From Enterobacteria phage SfI, in the sequence record JX509734: a stretch of 38,389 nucleotides of DNA. One strand, 5' to 3'. The translations under genes and the position numbers were made by a program. This document shows positions 2,470-35,893 of the stretch, piece by piece. The notes beneath the pieces were generated by a model that saw only the letters and a list, made by a program, of their open reading frames with translations, did not search any database and was not told the origin of the DNA. Position 1 is the first letter of the stretch. Every line of letters starts with the position of its first letter.

Positions 2470-3710
2470 TGTTCTTTTCGGGATTATTTCAACGAAAAAG
2501 TGACGCACCGGTGACCACGCCAGCAGAGCTGGCGGATGCCATCGGGTTGTCCTACGACACCTATACCGGAAAGCAGATCAGCAGTCAGCGGGCCATGCGA
2601 CTGACGGCGGTTTTTTCCTGCGTCAGAGTGCTGGCAGAGTCGGTCGGGATGTTGCCCTGCAATCTGTATCACCTGAACGGCAGCCTGAAGCAGAGAGCCA
2701 CCGGCGAACGTCTGCATAAACTGATCTCCACGCATCCCAATAGCTATATGACGCCGCAGGAGTTCTGGGAGCTGGTGGTCACCTGTCTGTGCCTGCGGGG
2801 AAATTTTTACGCCTACAAAGTGAAAGCATTTGGCGAAGTGGCTGAACTGCTGCCCGTCGATCCCGGTTGTGTGGTACCGAAGCTTAACAGTAGCTGGGAA
2901 CCGGTTTACCAGGTCACATTTCCGGACGGCTCCACGGATGTACTGAGCCAGGAAGATATCTGGCATGTGCGCACGCTGACGCTGGACGGTCTGGTGGGAC
3001 TGAATCCCATCGCCTATGCCCGCGAGGCAATATCGCTGGCGGCAGCGACCGAAGAGCACGGGGCCAGACTGTTCAGCAATGGCGCGGTGACGTCGGGTGT
3101 GTTGCGTACAGAGCAGACGCTGTCGGATCAGGCTTATGAGCGCCTGAAGAAAGATTTTGAGGAGCGTCACACCGGGCTTGGCAATGCTCACCGCCCGATG
3201 ATCCTTGAGATGGGGCTGGACTGGAAGTCGATGGCGTTGAACGCAGAGGACAGCCAGTTCCTGGAAACCCGCAAGTTTCAGCTTGAAGAAATCTGTCGTC
3301 TGTTCCGGGTGCCATTGCACATGGTGCAGAACACCGATCGCGCCACCTTCAACAATATCGAAGAACTGGGGCTCGGATTTATCAACTATTCACTGGTGCC
3401 GTATCTGACCCGCATCGAACAGCGGATCAACACCGGACTGGTACGAAAAAGTAAGCAGGGCGTTTATTACGCCAAATTTAACGCCGGGGCGTTACTGCGC
3501 GGGGATATGAAGTCCCGTTTTGAAGCCTACGCCACCGGGATTAACTGGGGAATTTACTCTCCCAATGACTGCCGCGACCTGGAAGATATGAATCCGCGTC
3601 CCGGTGGGAATGTCTATCTCACACCGATGAACATGACCACGAAACCCTCCGATGGCAGTAAAGCCGGTAAGCAGAAGGATAACGCCAATGCAGACGAAAC
3701 AACGTCTTGA
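2469..3710 (+). CDS. Portal protein (HK97 family)
   Basis: 413-aa ORF with GTG start preceded by GGAGG; length and position between TerL and prohead protease. Confidence 0.88.
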   Translation: MFFSGLFQRKSDAPVTTPAELADAIGLSYDTYTGKQISSQRAMRLTAVFSCVRVLAESVGMLPCNLYHLNGSLKQRATGERLHKLISTHPNSYMTPQEFWELVVTCLCLRGNFYAYKVKAFGEVAELLPVDPGCVVPKLNSSWEPVYQVTFPDGSTDVLSQEDIWHVRTLTLDGLVGLNPIAYAREAISLAAATEEHGARLFSNGAVTSGVLRTEQTLSDQAYERLKKDFEERHTGLGNAHRPMILEMGLDWKSMALNAEDSQFLETRKFQLEEICRLFRVPLHMVQNTDRATFNNIEELGLGFINYSLVPYLTRIEQRINTGLVRKSKQGVYYAKFNAGALLRGDMKSRFEAYATGINWGIYSPNDCRDLEDMNPRPGGNVYLTPMNMTTKPSDGSKAGKQKDNANADETTS

Positions 3711-4338
3711 TGTACCGCTGAGTCTGAAATCTGTCAGTGACTCCGGTGAGTTTGAAGGGTATGGCTCCGTCTTTGGTGTAAAGGACAGCCACGATGATGT
3801 GGTGATGTCCGGGGCATTTGCTGCTTCCCTGCGGGCGTGGAGTGACAGAAAAGCGTTACCTGCGCTGCTCTGGCAGCACCGCATGGATGAACCCATCGGT
3901 GTTTACACCGAAATGAAGGAAGACGATGTCGGGCTTTACGTCAGGGGACGGTTGCTTATTGATGATGATCCCCTCGCAAAACGCGCACATGCACACATGA
4001 AGGCCGGTTCGTTAACCGGCCTTTCTATTGGGTACGTCCTGAAAGACTGGGAATACGACCGGAGCAAAGAAGCCTTTCTGCTGAAAGAAATCGACCTCTG
4101 GGAAGTCAGCCTGGTGACGTTCCCGTCTAACGACGAGGCGCGGATCAGCGACGTCAAGAACGCACTGGCCCGCGGGGAAATCCCCGAACAGAAAAAAATC
4201 GAAAGAGTCCTGCGTGATGTCGGACTCTCCCGTACCCAGGCCAAAGCATTCATGGCCGGGGGCTATGGCGCACTGTCCCTGCGCGACGCTGAGGATGTGG
4301 GCTCTGCACTGAATGCACTGAAAAATCTGAACTTCTAA
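3652..4338 (+). CDS. Prohead maturation protease (HK97 gp4-like)
   Basis: 228-aa ORF between portal and major capsid; start could be the internal ATG near 3688 because 3652 overlaps the portal end. Confidence 0.8.
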   Translation: MAVKPVSRRITPMQTKQRLDVPLSLKSVSDSGEFEGYGSVFGVKDSHDDVVMSGAFAASLRAWSDRKALPALLWQHRMDEPIGVYTEMKEDDVGLYVRGRLLIDDDPLAKRAHAHMKAGSLTGLSIGYVLKDWEYDRSKEAFLLKEIDLWEVSLVTFPSNDEARISDVKNALARGEIPEQKKIERVLRDVGLSRTQAKAFMAGGYGALSLRDAEDVGSALNALKNLNF

Positions 4339-16352: not shown

Positions 16353-16927
16353 CAAACGATGATTACATCCGTCTGTTGTCGGCACTGTTGCCACCCGGTC
16401 CGGCGTGGTCAGCCAGAGATCCGGCGATTGCCGGTGCGGCACCGTCATTAACCCGCGTTCATCAGCGTGCGGATGCCCTGATGCGGGAGCTGGATCCGCG
16501 CACCACCACTGAACTGATAAACCGCTGGGAGCGTCTGTGCGGTCTGCCGGATGAATGTATTCCCGCAGGGACACAGACCCTTCGCCAGCGTCAGCAACGA
16601 CTGGATGCGAAGGTTAACCTGGCGGGCGGCATCAATGAGGATTTTTACCTTGCACAGCTTGCTGCCCTGGGCAGACCAGACGCTACCATCACGCGATACG
16701 ACAAAAGCACGTTCACCTGCTCATCTGCCTGTACTGACGCGGTGAATGCACCGGAATGGCGGTATTACTGGCAGGTCAACATGCCAGTCGCCACCAACAC
16801 CACCTGGATGACATGTGGCGATCCCTGTGATTCCGCGCTGCGCTTCTGGGGGGACACCGTTGTCGAGTGTGTGCTTAACAAACTCTGCCCGTCGCATACC
16901 TATGTGATTTTTAAATATCCGGAGTAA
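16343..16927 (+). CDS. Tail protein, Mu gp48 / YmfQ-like (DUF2313)
   Basis: 194-aa ORF between baseplate J and the tail fibre gene. Confidence 0.65.
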
Positions 16928-16930
16928 TCC

Positions 16931-17581
16931 ATGCATCGTATAGACACGAAAACCGCGCAGAAGGATAAGTTCGGCGCGGGTAAGAACGGTTTTACCCGTG
17001 GTAACCCCCAGACTGGCACGCCTGCCACCGATCTGGATGATGACTACTTTGACATGTTGCAGGAGGAGCTTTGCAGCGTGGTGGAGGCATCCGGTGCCAG
17101 CCTGGAGAAGGGGCGGCACGATCAGTTGCTTACCGCACTTCGCGCGCTGCTGTTAAGCCGCAAGAATCCGTTTGGCGATATCAAATCGGATGGCACGGTG
17201 AAAACGGCTCTCGAAAACCTTGGTTTGGGAGAAGCAGCTAAAAGGAATGTAGGTACAGGGGCGAATCAGATACCTGATATGAGCCTGTTCGCGTCAAGTA
17301 ATACCGCAACGGCTGCTGCGCAAAAATTTCCGTCTGGATTAATTTTACAGTGCGGTCAGTTGAATGGCTCCCCTAATGTATCTTCAACATACGGGATGAG
17401 GTTCCCGATGACATTCTCAAGAGTCCTTGCTGTCACAGTTACATTGAACGTTACTGGCGCGTCAGGGCAGCCGACTGTATCGGCGACAAATGTCCATAAC
17501 ACTGGATTTGATATTACAGTGTCGCCCGGTTCAGGATATGGTTCATCTGCTGATGCGTATTACATTGCAATGGGATATTAA
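16931..17581 (+). CDS. Tail fibre protein (short; AT-rich receptor-binding C-terminus)
   Basis: 216-aa ORF with N-terminus [17 protein letters not shown]; the C-terminal half drops markedly in GC. Confidence 0.72.
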
Positions 17582-17585
17582 CGAA

Positions 17586-17993
17586 ATGTCATATTTTTAT
17601 TCTGCATCGACAAACGGATTTTATTCGACTGAATTTCACGGCACCAATATTCCTGATGATGCAGTGGAAATCTCGGAATCAGAGTGGAAAACACTGATTA
17701 ATTCGCAGAGTGTAACAAAAATGATTACCTGTGGTGAGAATGGTCACCCTGTCATTGTTGACCGTCCTTCTCCAACACCAGAACAATTAGCCTTAATAAA
17801 TAATGAAAAGAAATCTGCACTGATAGCAGAGGCAACGAATGTAATAGCGCCGCTTCAGGATGCGGTTGATTTAGATATGGCAACAGATGATGAAACGAAA
17901 CTGTTACTGGCATGGAAAAAATATCGCGCACTATTGATGCGTGTTGATATAAAAAATACAGAGTGGCCGAAAAAACCAGAGAGCAATCTATAA
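17586..17993 (+). CDS. Tail fibre assembly chaperone (Tfa-like)
   Basis: Track ORF 17490..17993; functional start taken as the ATG at 17586 (MSYFYSASTNGFYS...), 5 nt after the fibre stop. Confidence 0.68.
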   Translation: MSYFYSASTNGFYSTEFHGTNIPDDAVEISESEWKTLINSQSVTKMITCGENGHPVIVDRPSPTPEQLALINNEKKSALIAEATNVIAPLQDAVDLDMATDDETKLLLAWKKYRALLMRVDIKNTEWPKKPESNL

Positions 17994-18163
17994 GAGAAAA
18001 TTCGTTATTGGATGAAAAGCGAGACATCTAATTATAACAGCATATGGTTTTTCTAATGATAGCTCCTTCAACTTTATAGTATCTCATATACTCTAGAATA
18101 TAGCTCTAAATGAGGGTTTGTTGTATACGGCAACCACTCCATTTTTATTCCTGATAGGGATAT

Positions 18164-18185
18164 AACCCGTCGAAAAAGACGGGTT
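18164..18185. terminator. Stem-loop between convergent tfa and gtrC (possible bidirectional terminator)
   Basis: AACCCGTC / GACGGGTT 8-bp perfect stem with GAAAAA loop, between the convergent ends of tfa (+) and gtrC (-); U-tracts are weak. Confidence 0.4.
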
Positions 18186-18226
18186 ATTCATTCGTTAGTG
18201 TGGTTTATATGGTAGGGGGCAATTTA

Positions 18227-19747
18227 CTATAGGTTAAGTTTTTTGTTAAATACTAATATTACTCTTCCTTCAAAGTTCAAAACTTCGTCAGGCTTACCTA
18301 ATTGTTCTTGAATACCTGCAAGGCAGGATGTCATTTCTTTACATCGTTCAGGTTCGTTAGCTATGGAAACTGCTATAAACTGTCGCTCAGGAGCAGAATT
18401 GAACGCCTCCTTGCTATGCCAAGAAGCCAGTGTCTGTTGTCTCACGCCAGTAAAGTTAATTTTCCCCGAATCAGCATTAAAGAAAACAGGAGTTATCTGT
18501 ATGTCCCCACCAGATAACCAATTTACAGTCATTGACAAATCCCAAAAAGAGCCGTACCCATAATGGAGATTATTTTTTTTTAAAAAATCAATGTATGATT
18601 TAACAATCTTCTCCTGATCGTGTAATGGTGAAGCATTATTTGTGTAAGATTTAATTGAACTGATCGAAAATAAAAATGCGATTAGATAAAATAATATCTT
18701 TGCTTTTGTTGATGTACCGATACAGCACAATATCAGTGCGAAACAGGTAACATTCATAAAGAAACGCATGCTAATATAATCAGGGGATTTATAGCTCAGT
18801 ATGAATGATGAGACAATACCTGCGATAGATAATAATGAAAATAACACAATATAAATACGGTATGTGTTTTTTTTATTGTCCGATAAAACAAACCACGCAG
18901 ATGTAATAATGGCAATGAACCAAATGACAAATGAGGCGTAAGATGTTGCGTTATTGTCGACAACTAATAAATTAAGACTTTTTCCTATTAACAGAATGCA
19001 CCATTTTGCATTTAAAATCATATCATTGAGTGATACAATTTCAAATTGGTGGGGAGGTATGTTAAGTAGATTTTGCAATACATTGGAAAGAGAGATTAAA
19101 CATGCAAATAGTATTAATGCAGTATGCTTAAATAATTTTTTATCCCATACAGAGAATAAAAAGTAAGATATTAATAGTGGAATAAAAAATGCAGCTGTAA
19201 ACCACGGATCGGATACGCTGGAAAATAATGCTGTCAAACTTAAGAGGAGAGTGATAAATATATTTTTATACTGTATGTTGAAAACAGATATAAGCAAGCA
19301 TAAAAAGCCGAAAGCGTTTGTTGAATTATGAGAAAAAGGATGTGATACAAAACCATAAGTGTATGAAAAATATGGTATTAGAGATAGAAGTATAATAGAA
19401 AATAAAGCAGGGGTAAACCCGAATGCCTTACGTAGCGTTAACATCGCTGCTATTACTATAGCAATAGAGAAAACTGCAGTTGATAATCTTAATGCTACTA
19501 AGCCATCATCACCTAACAGCATATAAAATAAAAAGTTAATTGGGTAAACGGTGAAATACCAATTATCCACGGTTGGTTTCCAGTCGTGGATTGATGATAT
19601 ACCATTCTCTAAAATATGCCTCCATACAATTGGGCTGTTAGCAACATCCGGTTCAACTGGAAAGTATCTGGTAGTCAACCAAGTTATTAGGAGTGCTGAT
19701 AAAGCCAATAATATTTTTAATGCTGATTGTTTAATACATATGCTCAT
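18227..19747 (-). CDS. GtrC-family serotype-specific O-antigen glucosyltransferase (polytopic membrane protein)
   Basis: 506-aa very hydrophobic, AT-rich ORF directly downstream of gtrB in the same operon; gtrC genes are the variable, serotype-defining member of gtr cassettes. Confidence 0.72.
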   Translation of the reverse strand: MSICIKQSALKILLALSALLITWLTTRYFPVEPDVANSPIVWRHILENGISSIHDWKPTVDNWYFTVYPINFLFYMLLGDDGLVALRLSTAVFSIAIVIAAMLTLRKAFGFTPALFSIILLSLIPYFSYTYGFVSHPFSHNSTNAFGFLCLLISVFNIQYKNIFITLLLSLTALFSSVSDPWFTAAFFIPLLISYFLFSVWDKKLFKHTALILFACLISLSNVLQNLLNIPPHQFEIVSLNDMILNAKWCILLIGKSLNLLVVDNNATSYASFVIWFIAIITSAWFVLSDNKKNTYRIYIVLFSLLSIAGIVSSFILSYKSPDYISMRFFMNVTCFALILCCIGTSTKAKILFYLIAFLFSISSIKSYTNNASPLHDQEKIVKSYIDFLKKNNLHYGYGSFWDLSMTVNWLSGGDIQITPVFFNADSGKINFTGVRQQTLASWHSKEAFNSAPERQFIAVSIANEPERCKEMTSCLAGIQEQLGKPDEVLNFEGRVILVFNKKLNL

Positions 19748-19749
19748 GG

Positions 19750-20670
19750 TTATTTTCTACCTTTCTTCAAAATATACTTAGGTCTTGATTTTGTTTCTAA
19801 GTAAATTCTACCTATATATTCACCGAGAACACCAATCCCGATCAGTTGCACTCCACCCAAGAAAAGTATTGATACAAGCAGGGAGGGATACCCGCGTACT
19901 GGGTTACCAAAGACAAGGGTGTCTATAATCATCCATGCACCATATAAAAATGAAATGCTTGCAACAAACAAGCCTATATAAGTCCATACGCGAAGAGGAA
20001 AGGTTGAAAAACTTGTGATACCTTCCAGTGCCAGATTCCATAATTTCCAGCCATTAAATTTTGAGATGCCAGCAACACGCTCTGCGCGTACATATTCAAC
20101 GACATCCGTCTGACCACCCACCCAGCTCAGTATGCCTTTCATGAAAAGATTGCGCTCAGGCAACAGTTTAATGTTCTCCACAACCTCACGAGACATGAGT
20201 CGAAAATCTCCGACATTTTCCTCGATCTTTGGGGTGCTTATTTTGTTGTGTAATTTATAGAACCACTCAGCTGTCTTACGTTTCAGTCGTCCATCAGTTG
20301 AGCGGTCTGAACGTTTAGCAAGCACCATGTCAGCACCTGCCTGCCACTTTTCAATAAGATGAGGGATAACCTCAATTGGGTCTTGCAGGTCGACATCAAT
20401 AGGAATTACAGCATCGCCGCTTGCATGGTCTAACCCTGCAAATAAGGCTGGTTCTTTACCAAAGTTGCGTGTAAATGACAGCGGAACAACTAGCGGGTCT
20501 GAAACAGCCAGCGCGTTAATAATTGACTCTGTGGCATCTTTACTTCCGTCATTTATGAATACAATTTCTACTTCATATGGCTTCAACTCTTGGAATTCAC
20601 GTACCGTTTTATAGAAAACAGGTATCGCTTCTTCTTCATTGAAGACAGGAACGACAAGAGATATTTTCAT
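19750..20670 (-). CDS. gtrB: Bactoprenol glucosyltransferase GtrB (GT2 family)
   Basis: 306-aa ORF ([17 protein letters not shown]...) with C-terminal TM segments; coupled to gtrA upstream. Confidence 0.88.
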
Positions 20671-21029
20671 TTCGCATCCCTAAAGACAATGAACTTTGAA
20701 TAGACGAAACCGCACACCAGACTGATGGCGGAGAAGGTGATAAGAGTGACTATTGGAGGAAGTGAGCATTTATCAGCTGCCCAACCAACAATCACACTCA
20801 ATATTCCCATAAATCCCACGTATAACATGTAGCGCATCGCTGTAGTCGATGCTTTGAATGTGAATCTTGCATTCGCGAAGAAGCTAAAGCTCACAGCCAC
20901 TACGAAACCTGTGAAGTTTGCCAGAGCCTGACTGGTATGTGCGGCATAGATACATACACCAAAAACCACCCAGTGTATAAGTGTGTTCAGCACACCTATA
21001 GATGTGTACTTTACAAATAACTTTAACAT
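20667..21029 (-). CDS. gtrA: GtrA flippase for undecaprenyl-phosphate glucose
   Basis: 120-aa four-TM protein; first gene of the minus-strand gtr operon. Confidence 0.85.
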
Positions 21030-21230
21030 TTATTTAATCAATGAGCTCTGAAAGGCATGAAGTCTATCATCCAAGTCTCAATTGATCGATACTTGCTATG
21101 TCTGATGAGACAAAACTGAGACACATAAGGCCTCACAATGGCTTGCAAGGCTTTACATGTTTTGATGTGGTGGGACGTGTGAGCGCAGTGTTGATGGGAT
21201 AATCCTTTGAATTACAAGCGGATTCTTATA

Positions 21231-21276
21231 ATTCGTAATGCGAAGGTCGTAGGTTCGACTCCTATTATCGGCACCA
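21231..21276 (+). other. attP core: 3-prime 46 nt of tRNA-Thr (thrW-type), ending GGCACCA
   Basis: ATTCGTAATGCGAAGGTCGTAGGTTCGACTCCTATTATCGGCACCA matches the anticodon-to-CCA portion of enterobacterial thrW as I remember it; upstream sequence is not tRNA-like; integrase gene lies 15 nt away. Confidence 0.75.
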
Positions 21277-21290
21277 TTAAAATCAATAAG

Positions 21291-22454
21291 TTACACATCA
21301 TTAGTACCTTCCTTATTTTTTGACTGGGACAAATTTGGGACCGATGGGTTCAGGATCGAGTCTATTTGCCGTGCGTGTTCGGTAAGGTGATTAGGTGCAA
21401 GGTGAGCATATCGACGAACCATTTCGATAGACTCCCAGCCTCCCATTTCCTGTAACACTGACAATGGGACTCCGGCTTGAACCAGCCAACTTGCCCAGGT
21501 GTGTCTCAAGTCGTGAAATCTGAAATCATCAATACCAGCCCGTCTCAGCGCCGCTTTCCAGGCTGTGTTTGCGTCATACCGCATCTTCCTTACTGTTGGC
21601 GCTTTCGTTCCGTCTGGTTTGGTACAGCTTTCCTTGTATACAAATACCCAACGGTGATGATTCCCGATTTGTTTTTTCAATACGCGACATGCAGTATCAT
21701 TCAGCGCAACGCCAATTGCGCGGTTTGATTTACTCTCTTCCGGGTTTATCCATGCCACCCGGCGCTGCATGTCTATTTGTTGCCATTCAAGGTTGATGAT
21801 GTTCGAGCGTCTTAAGCCTGTTGCCAGTGCAAATTCAACAACAGACTTTAATGGCTCCGGACATTCATCAATCAGCCTTTGTGCTTCATGAGGCTCCAGC
21901 CAGCGGATACGTTTATTCTTCGGTTGAGGCACTTTAATAATTGGTGCCTTATCCAGCATTTTCCATTCACGCTCTGCGGCTCTTAGCAGGGCCTTTATAA
22001 ATGAAAGATGCGTAGCCTTCGTTGCAACGGACGCTGGTTTTGGCGTGTATTCTGGAACAGGTTTCCCTTTTTTTCTGCATGCTTCTGCCCTGAGTTTCCA
22101 GTTTTCCTCATGACGCCGGTTCGTCATTTTCTGCATTGCTGAATAAATTTTTGATTCAGTAATGTCTTTTAGTTGCATTCCTGCGAAATGTTGAAGCCAG
22201 AATCCGATCCGGCTTTTGTCATCGTCCAGTGATTTTTTATGTGCTTTCTCTTCGAGCCACCTGACACACGCTTCCTCAAACGTCATATCAGGTATTTCAC
22301 CAAGTTTGCTGACCCGCCATGCTTCAGCCTTTAGCTTGTCATGGAGCTCTGTCGCCTGCCTTTTGTCCTTTGTTCCAAGAGACTGTTTAAATCTTTTACC
22401 GTTCGGCAATGTGAAACTGGCGTACCATATTTCACTTCTGCGGAAGAGTGACAT
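21291..22454 (-). CDS. int: Tyrosine integrase (P22 Int-like)
   Basis: 387-aa ORF ([47 protein letters not shown]...) with C-terminal [11 protein letters not shown]...RYAHL catalytic signature; adjacent to attP. Confidence 0.9.
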
Positions 22455-35737: not shown

Positions 35738-35812
35738 GGGTCAGTCGTATAAAGGTCATTACGGAAGGCTGTTAACCTTCTTATCGTGGTTCGAGTCCAC
35801 GCTGTCCCGCCA
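35738..35812 (+). tRNA. tRNA, anticodon GTT by hand fold (Asn-like); slightly imperfect stems
   Basis: 75 nt with CCA end; perfect anticodon stem GAAGG/CCTTC with loop CTGTTAA, T-arm CGTGG-TTCGAGT-CCACG, one T-T mismatch in the acceptor stem and a 3-bp D-stem. Confidence 0.5.
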
Positions 35813-35817
35813 AATAT

Positions 35818-35893
35818 GCTGGTTTAGCTCCAATGGTAGAGCGGTCGCCTTGTAAGCGAATGGGTAGCGGTTCAAGTCCGTTAACCAGCACCA
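35818..35893 (+). tRNA. tRNA-Thr (anticodon TGT) by hand fold
   Basis: 76 nt; perfect 7-bp acceptor stem (GCTGGTT/AACCAGC), D-stem GCTC/GAGC, anticodon loop CTTGTAA, T-loop TTCAAGT, 3-prime ACCA. Confidence 0.72.

Follow-up and report, generated by a model that had tools for sequence, protein, structure and literature searches.

Serotype 1 of Shigella flexneri, which is a major target of vaccines and surveillance, is determined by the gtrI gene, and this gene is used in both PCR and in-silico serotyping. The genes gtrAI-gtrBI-gtrI were reportedly described by Adhikari et al. in 1999 from strain Y53 (AAF09025-27). For the serotype-converting phage SfI, Table S1 of Sun et al. (2013, PMC3636060) gives ORF25 (18227<-19747) as GtrI, ORF26 (19750<-20670) as GtrBI and ORF27 (20667<-21029) as GtrAI, the entry for GtrI against AAF09027 being 100/506, that is, 100% identity. 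According to the same study, serotype Y cells that carry SfI as a prophage agglutinate as 1a, type I antigen is an alpha-1,4-linked glucose on the GlcNAc of the O-unit, and O-antigen modification leading to phage exclusion is a possible explanation for the narrow host range of SfI (PMC3636060). Conversion of serotype X to 1d by SfI lysogeny is also on record in the literature. Moreover, a serotype Y scaffold becomes 1a when gtrI is supplied on a plasmid, and NMR together with GLC-MS shows glucosylation of GlcNAc (PMC9243986). The serotype change and the glucosylation of GlcNAc are thus results of the literature, whereas the analysis described below gives the identity of the genes and their order, the families and folds to which they are assigned, the att site and the cassette boundaries.

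We analysed a stretch of DNA of 38,389 nucleotides (the window) in which the region next to attP is almost certainly the gtrA-gtrB-gtrI O-antigen glucosylation operon of phage SfI (features in Table 1). The published gtrAI-gtrBI-gtrI of SfI has the same coordinates and ORF lengths, the published genome has the same length of 38,389 bp, and att core, primers, tRNAs and cos end agree as well; no difference was detected (Sun et al. 2013, PMC3636060). The published primers gtrI-F and intI-R each have a single, exact match, at 18398-18419 and 21438-21459, respectively. The 46-nt attP core, whose sequence, role and identity to the 3' end of thrW are taken from PMC3636060, likewise matches exactly and once, with 0 matches in 100 shuffles. 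The starts of tRNA-Asn (35738) and tRNA-Thr (35818) agree with that paper, as does the terminus of the window, which is the published cos overhang TGCCCGCCCC, and the G+C content of the whole window is 50.1%, the published value for SfI being 50.12% (PMC3636060). Operon and function have therefore already been published, and the observation made in the first-pass annotation, while correct, is an ordinary one.

Table 1. Coordinates of the gtr operon and adjoining features in the window.
Feature	Position	Strand	Description
Tail-fibre assembly gene	17490-17993		Pfam Caudo_TAP
Serotype-specific DNA segment	18046..19771		gtrI, 3' flank and last few gtrB codons; blastn breakpoints
10-bp stem-loop, probable terminator	18162..18187	-	Suggested by the fold
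gtrI	18227..19747	-	506 aa, serotype-specific polytopic glucosyltransferase of predicted GT-C fold, type I antigen
gtrB (GtrBI)	19750..20670	-	306 aa, GT2 bactoprenol (undecaprenyl-phosphate) glucosyltransferase
gtrA (GtrAI)	20667..21029	-	120 aa, small four-helix membrane protein; putative Und-P-glucose flippase
Leader, att core to gtrA, 201 nt	21030..21230	-	Presumed promoter region
attP core, 46 nt	21231..21276	+	3' end of host tRNA-Thr gene thrW
int, tyrosine integrase, 387 aa	21291..22454	-	Context, outside the operon; Pfam PF00589, E 2.8e-48

The ORF listing shows three co-oriented minus-strand frames, all intact and tightly packed in the order gtrA, gtrB, gtr(type): gtrA and gtrB share a 4-nt overlap (ATGA), and a 2-nt gap separates the gtrB stop from the gtrI start. 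A 506-codon open frame has a chance of ~1e-17 by simple arithmetic, with ~7% of random codons being stops at ~33% G+C. The minus-strand gtrA-gtrB-gtr(type) operon that had been proposed from the letters is borne out by these frames and by the family matches of GtrA and GtrB. The proposed AT-richness relative to the tail genes also holds, G+C being 33.4% in gtrI and 42-43% in gtrA and gtrB against 52-61% in the tail genes, and so does the proposed siting, with the Caudo_TAP gene on one side and the att core, followed by int, on the other. The region is accordingly an AT-rich moron at the prophage end that adjoins attP.

Because the window is SfI and the third gene is gtrI, the sugar and linkage that this gene specifies are answered in the literature. 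The figure of 100% identity to GtrI AAF09027 is that of Table S1, carried over by the agreeing coordinates, primers and landmarks; in addition, members of the 90% protein cluster of GtrI carry the name 'gtrI [Shigella flexneri]'. We consider it very unlikely that the third gene has a new specificity, creating a sugar or linkage unlike any characterised S. flexneri type. Such a reading could draw on the lack of sequence similarity to GtrII, GtrIV and GtrV (BLASTP, best E 0.066 over 53 aa; hhalign, probability 0.3-1.5%), on the lack of a curated family match for GtrI, and on a tblastn search of a phage collection that returned no full-length match, only a C-terminal GtrI-like remnant in phage N7. 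However, the collection searched was evidently one without the SfI record, which explains the missing match, and the table of the SfI paper has the same coordinates, the same length and complete identity to AAF09027, with the gtrI-specific primer and the cluster names pointing the same way.

The first-pass annotation had proposed comparing the third protein with characterised Gtr types. That comparison gave identity with GtrI, through Table S1, the primer and the cluster names, but no resemblance to GtrII, GtrIV or GtrV. The other checks proposed there, serotyping of lysogens and NMR or MS of their O-antigen, already exist as published work. Unrelatedness to the GtrC family, which had been put forward as refuting evidence, is a poor test, absent similarity being normal among Gtr(type) proteins; the assignment as GtrI depends instead on identity with the characterised GtrI and on its GT-C fold.

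GT-C lipid-phosphate-sugar-dependent transferases use a polyprenyl-phosphate-linked donor at the non-cytoplasmic face of the membrane. The hydropathy profile of GtrI shows ~9-11 hydrophobic spans followed by a polar C-terminal part of 150 aa, and its AlphaFold model is confident (pLDDT 92.9, pTM 0.90). When this model was compared with the PDB by Foldseek, the best 30 matches were all GT-C enzymes at probability 1.00, among them STT3, PglB, AglB, ArnT (5f15, TMq 0.58), ALG9/12, DPY19, Pmt4 and Aft. Hydropathy, model and fold matches together uphold the earlier description of the third gene as a polytopic serotype-specific transferase, and the model predicts with confidence a GT-C fold of the STT3/PglB/ArnT kind despite the lack of detectable similarity to GtrII, GtrIV and GtrV. 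With ArnT, PglB/STT3/AglB, the PMTs, ALG9/12, DPY19 and mycobacterial Aft/Emb, GtrI shares a polytopic membrane domain at the N-terminus, a first extramembrane loop with conserved acidic residues, and a soluble domain at the C-terminus that lies in the periplasm (Foldseek E 1e-6 to 1e-3, TM ~0.5-0.58), but sequence identity is just 9-15%, and the acceptor is the O-antigen repeat unit for GtrI and lipid A, protein or arabinan for the other enzymes. Within this loop, D34 and D61 of GtrI are invariant across 37 homologues and would be the catalytic residues, placed in the first periplasmic loop.

The match of GtrI to Pfam PMT_2 (16.7 bits, E 0.0087) lies under the cut-off of 26.1, NCBIfam gave no match, the sole match in PHROGs was partial and to a family of unknown function, and searches of PDB sequences, with the single sequence and with a profile, gave no usable match. 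Curated family libraries thus miss gtrI, leading to automatic labels such as 'hypothetical' or 'GT39'. In E. coli records the PGAP name is 'glycosyltransferase family 39 protein'.

Some Salmonella proteins named 'GtrC' are acyltransferases. This, and the failure of sequence searches alone to give GtrI a family, might suggest that the third gene encodes an O-antigen acetyltransferase of the Salmonella family-II GtrC or Oac type, a reading that we regard as extremely improbable. The confident model of GtrI matches only GT-C enzymes at E <= 1e-3 and shows no acyltransferase-3 fold, the PMT_2 match, weak as it is, also argues against it, and the published NMR shows that glucose is added, not acetyl (PMC9243986).

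The two upstream genes are readily assigned to families. GtrA matches Pfam PF04138 GtrA_DPMS_TM (E 1.9e-14; 54.3 bits, cut-off 26.1) and PHROG 2224 'GtrA-like O-antigen conversion' (E 1.2e-69). GtrB matches Pfam PF00535 Glycos_transf_2 (E 7.4e-31) and PHROG 34335/841 GtrB, and aligns over residues 2-301 with the solved Synechocystis sll0501 (5ekp; E 8.6e-89), presumably the GtrB homologue of that organism. GtrB also has a DxD motif, DVD at residues 92-94, and hydrophobic stretches at 231-254 and 261-286 that correspond to two membrane helices near its C-terminus. In the pathway that these assignments suggest, GtrB would act as a GT2 enzyme on the cytoplasmic side of the inner membrane and load undecaprenyl phosphate with glucose taken from UDP-glucose, GtrA would flip the resulting Und-P-glucose to the periplasmic face, and GtrI, as a polytopic GT-C enzyme, would place the glucose on the GlcNAc of the O-unit in the periplasm in alpha-1,4 linkage, giving type I antigen. 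The operon is expressed in the lysogen, lysogeny turning Y into 1a and X into 1d. GtrA is a putative Und-P-glucose flippase; we know of no biochemical demonstration of this activity.

In the lysogen the operon end abuts host DNA, and the 201-nt leader, ~99% conserved with SfV and SfII, therefore presumably contains a promoter of the operon's own. A sigma-70 consensus scan gave no more sites than were found in shuffles and none that was convincing in the gtrA leader. Salmonella P22-type gtr operons are said, by Broadbent et al. in 2010, to be phase-variable under Dam/OxyR control. The paired GATC sites of such control were not found within 20901-21300, which holds one GATC, at 21084; with this single GATC in the gtrA leader, phase variation of the Salmonella type is unsupported for SfI gtr. 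At the other end, where gtrI and the tail-fibre assembly gene converge, a stem-loop follows the gtrI stop at a distance of 40 nt. Its AUAACCCGUC/GACGGGUUAU stem is present in the minimum-energy fold and its U-tract is weak; a consensus terminator scan did not list this hairpin, which is probably a transcription terminator. It is hardly credible that the cassette has decayed or fallen silent in this genome, like the gtr remnants of many cryptic prophages: many members of the GtrI 90% cluster are fragments of 87-316 aa, phage N7 holds only the C-terminal piece and the promoter scan found none, but the three SfI frames are intact and tightly coupled, lysogeny converts Y to 1a (PMC3636060), and many of the listed fragmentary members sit on short draft contigs of 0.3-4 kb.

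Turning from SfI to the wider distribution of its operon, we found ~60 homologues of GtrI, down to 32% identity, and all those with an organism name are from Enterobacterales. One homologue, 50% identical, is encoded immediately behind a GT2 gene, with tail-fibre and baseplate genes alongside. An identical cassette is present in three complete E. coli genomes (CP139337, CP047594, CP182383). These carriers were rejected as copies of whole SfI: for its early and regulatory half the best matches are in other genomes, and the carriers are therefore mosaic lambdoid prophages that share the tail-gtr module. It is possible, if rather doubtful, that the GtrI family forms a separate GT-C clade, one without a curated Pfam or NCBIfam model, an annotated PHROG model or a solved structure, in which invariant D34 and D61, an H136-P-F-x-H140 motif and R328 would define the active site, and that the cassette in the three E. 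coli genomes might modify O-antigens beyond the S. flexneri backbone. If so, the E. coli carriers would imply either a broader acceptor range than has been assumed or strains with a flexneri-like (O13-group) backbone.

The predicted GT-C fold of GtrI, the cassette boundaries, the missing curated family and the three E. coli carriers of the identical cassette are new here, and minor; the residual value of the analysis lies in the clean boundaries of the serotype-specific segment and in a GT-C fold that comes without sequence similarity among Gtr(type) proteins. These boundaries emerge from comparison with the other S. flexneri phages. Homology to SfV in blastn stops at 18045 and restarts at 19772, with restarts at 19790 and 19802 for the pair SfII and SfIV, and megablast coverage agrees with blastn on this segment. 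Between the breakpoints, at ~18046-19771, homology to all three phages is absent at the DNA level, and G+C falls to the minimum of the window (31-37%).

The gtrABC clusters of SfV, SfII and SfIV have the same operon order as that of SfI and occupy the same slot, flanked by the tail-fibre assembly gene on one side and attP/int on the other. SfI GtrA is 99-100% identical to GtrA of SfV, SfII and SfIV, SfI GtrB is 94-98% identical to GtrB of SfII, SfV and SfIV, and the flanking DNA is 93-99% identical. The Gtr(type) proteins, by contrast, differ in length (GtrV 417 aa, GtrII 486 aa, GtrIV 437 aa and GtrI 506 aa), and the Gtr(type) gene is a non-homologous replacement. P22-like Salmonella phages have homologous gtrA and gtrB genes (~77% DNA identity) and an unrelated third gene. 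The acceptor of GtrV is a rhamnose. SfI and P22 have the attP core in common (PMC3636060). The acceptor sites differ as well, that of GtrI being O-4 of GlcNAc. GtrII acts on RhaI, and GtrIV also competes for GlcNAc (PMC9243986).

The window is the genome deposited for the S. flexneri serotype-converting phage SfI, described by Sun et al. in 2013 (PMC3636060), with which it agrees in length, base composition and the landmarks tabulated below; its best relatives by megablast in the phage collection were SfII, SfIV and SfV. The gtrABC serotype-conversion reading of the first-pass annotation is borne out overall, and the specificity that it had left open was already published. The identity of the third gene with AAF09027 is taken from the published table together with the matching landmarks, not from an alignment. 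The locus is already published and experimentally characterised. Downstream of the Q region, at 35738-35893, stand a tRNA-Asn(GTT) gene and a tRNA-Thr(TGT) gene in tandem, as PMC3636060 describes; the att core also belongs to a tRNA gene, forming the 3' end of host thrW (tRNA-Thr).

Landmarks and gtr genes of SfI in the published description (PMC3636060; ORFs from its Table S1) and in the window
Feature	PMC3636060	Window	Strand	Remark
Genome length	38,389 bp	38,389 bases		
G+C	50.12%	50.1%		
tRNA-Asn, tRNA-Thr starts	35,738 and 35,818	35738 and 35818		
cos overhang	TGCCCGCCCC	window terminates in same sequence		
attP core, 46 nt	sequence given	21231-21276		single exact match
Primer gtrI-F	sequence given	18398-18419		exact match
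Primer intI-R	sequence given	21438-21459		exact match
gtrA	ORF27, 20667<-21029, GtrAI	20667-21029	minus	120 aa; six-frame ORF list
gtrB	ORF26, 19750<-20670, GtrBI	19750-20670	minus	306 aa; six-frame ORF list
gtrI (third gene)	ORF25, 18227<-19747, 506 aa, GtrI, 100/506 identical to AAF09027 (strain Y53)	18227-19747	minus	506 aa; six-frame ORF list

In the six-frame ORF list the three ORFs, all on the minus strand, stand at precisely the positions first annotated, with an ATGA overlap at the gtrA/gtrB junction and 2 bases between gtrB and gtrI. Upstream, on the plus strand, are a tail-fibre gene, whose product has a gp53-like C-terminus, and a tail-fibre assembly gene (Caudo_TAP), and a tyrosine integrase gene lies downstream of gtrA. 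The AT-richness initially noted relative to the tail genes also held, G+C running at 31-37% over the 506-aa gene against 52-61% in the tail genes (33.4% for gtrI as a whole; 42.0% and 43.0% for the other two gtr genes). The 506-codon frame is not due to chance, for which we estimate a probability of ∼1e-17 at gtrI composition. The low-G+C block starts ahead of the gtr cassette, since the tail-fibre assembly gene (17490-17993), at 39.5% G+C, is AT-rich as well.

The route encoded by the operon is the established Gtr pathway. GtrB would transfer glucose from UDP-glucose to Und-P at the cytoplasmic face, GtrA is believed to flip the resulting Und-P-glucose, and GtrI would then pass the glucose to the O-unit in the periplasm. 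GtrA matches Pfam GtrA_DPMS_TM and the PHROG 'GtrA-like O-antigen conversion', and is 99-100% identical to its SfV, SfII and SfIV counterparts. GtrB is a GT2 enzyme by Pfam match, with a DVD motif (residues 92-94) and two hydrophobic helices at the C-terminus; it is 94-98% identical to the GtrBs of SfII, SfV and SfIV, and matches the solved structure of sll0501 (5ekp; E 8.6e-89), presumably the GtrB homologue of Synechocystis, and ArnC (E about 1e-43). GtrI produces the type I antigen, in which glucose is alpha-1,4-linked to GlcNAc, and on SfI lysogeny serotype Y types as 1a and serotype X as 1d (PMC3636060). A serotype Y scaffold strain likewise becomes 1a when given gtrI on a plasmid, NMR and GLC-MS place glucosylation on GlcNAc in gtrI strains, and gtrI and gtrIV compete for the same GlcNAc residue (PMC9243986). 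Phage exclusion through O-antigen modification was offered by the SfI authors only as a possible explanation for the narrow host range of SfI (PMC3636060).

At the level of sequence, GtrI is not captured by curated family libraries. Neither Pfam nor NCBIfam gave an above-threshold match, and sequence searches of the PDB found no match; the sole Pfam signal was PMT_2 at 16.7 bits, below the cut-off of 26.1, and the only PHROG match was partial (PHROG 22113, function unknown; residues 314-432). Neither BLASTP nor profile comparison detected similarity to GtrV, GtrII or GtrIV. The first-pass annotation had made relatedness to GtrC proteins a test of its reading, which is misleading: GtrI shares no sequence relationship with GtrII, GtrIV or GtrV, and such unrelatedness is the norm among Gtr(type) proteins. 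With 37 homologues as input, AlphaFold gave a confident model (pLDDT 92.9, pTM 0.90), whose best 30 Foldseek PDB matches were all GT-C enzymes (30/30; E 1e-6 to 2e-3, TM-scores ∼0.42-0.58), namely STT3, PglB, AglB, ArnT, ALG9/12, DPY19, Pmt4 and Aft. The model has a soluble alpha/beta C-terminal domain (residues ∼379-506). Asp34 and Asp61, in the first extramembrane loop, are invariant, as are the H136-P-F-x-H140 motif and Arg328; the D34/D61 pair would fit the arrangement typical of GT-C enzymes, with an acidic catalytic residue in external loop 1.

About 60 GtrI homologues were found (32-70% identity), those named by organism all being from Enterobacterales (E. coli, Rahnella, Erwinia, Pantoea, Yersinia, Hafnia, Sodalis and Citrobacter); one, at 50% identity, directly follows a GT2 gene beside the same tail-fibre/baseplate module. 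The 90%-identity cluster has 273 members, some named 'gtrI [Shigella flexneri]', which points to GtrI independently of PMC3636060. Database copies are mostly named 'hypothetical protein', and many cluster members are fragments of 87-316 aa, many from short contigs. Of 5,426 complete E. coli genomes, three have gtrI and the adjoining tail module at 99.9-100% identity (NZ_CP139337.1, here L004; NZ_CP047594.1; NZ_CP182383.1), where the PGAP name for GtrI is 'glycosyltransferase family 39 protein'. In E. coli YZ22MPE54 (L004) the match spans 16900-21294, ending 18 nt beyond the att core, and is neighboured by a truncated LysR-type gene and paoD-paoB, presumably the thrW/CP4-6 region, judging from the K-12 map. 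The early/regulatory half of SfI found its best matches in other E. coli genomes; the E. coli prophages are therefore mosaics with a common tail-gtr module. In the P22-like Escherichia phage N7 (MH717096.1) only a C-terminal GtrI-like remnant is present, at 3501-4130; it shows 39% identity to GtrI residues 291-504 and is recorded as a hypothetical ORF of 324 nt. The remnant is flanked by the int and tailspike genes, with neither gtrA nor gtrB adjoining, and looks like a decayed gtr cassette.

By blastn, homology to SfV stops at 18045, 52 nt beyond the tail-fibre assembly stop codon, and DNA homology restarts at 19772 for SfV and at 19790 and 19802 for the other two phages, in agreement with megablast coverage. 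These breakpoints delimit a serotype-specific segment of about 18046-19771, holding gtrI, its 3' flank and the final gtrB codons. A plausible candidate terminator is the 10-bp stem-loop at 18162-18187, in the interval where gtrI and the tail-fibre assembly gene converge; it has a weak U-tract and was missed by a consensus terminator scan. As the SfI paper annotates it, the tail-fibre assembly ORF overlaps the preceding tail-fibre gene (16931-17581) by 92 nt, and for the identical E. coli prophage PGAP places the start 63 nt further on (441 nt; L004 6154-6594), so the true start codon is ambiguous.

Since integration at the att core puts host DNA beyond it, the 201-nt gtrA leader (21030-21230) presumably carries the lysogen promoter; a consensus promoter scan located none there. 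Two overlapping terminator-like hairpins lie in this leader on the minus strand (21117-21151), and for the corresponding int-gtrA interval of SfII the record gives a putative rho-independent terminator; the hairpins could protect the gtr operon against read-through, coming in the free phage from int and in the lysogen from host DNA. Salmonella gtr operons bear a Dam/OxyR phase-variation signature; the SfI leader, in contrast, contains a single GATC and therefore lacks it.
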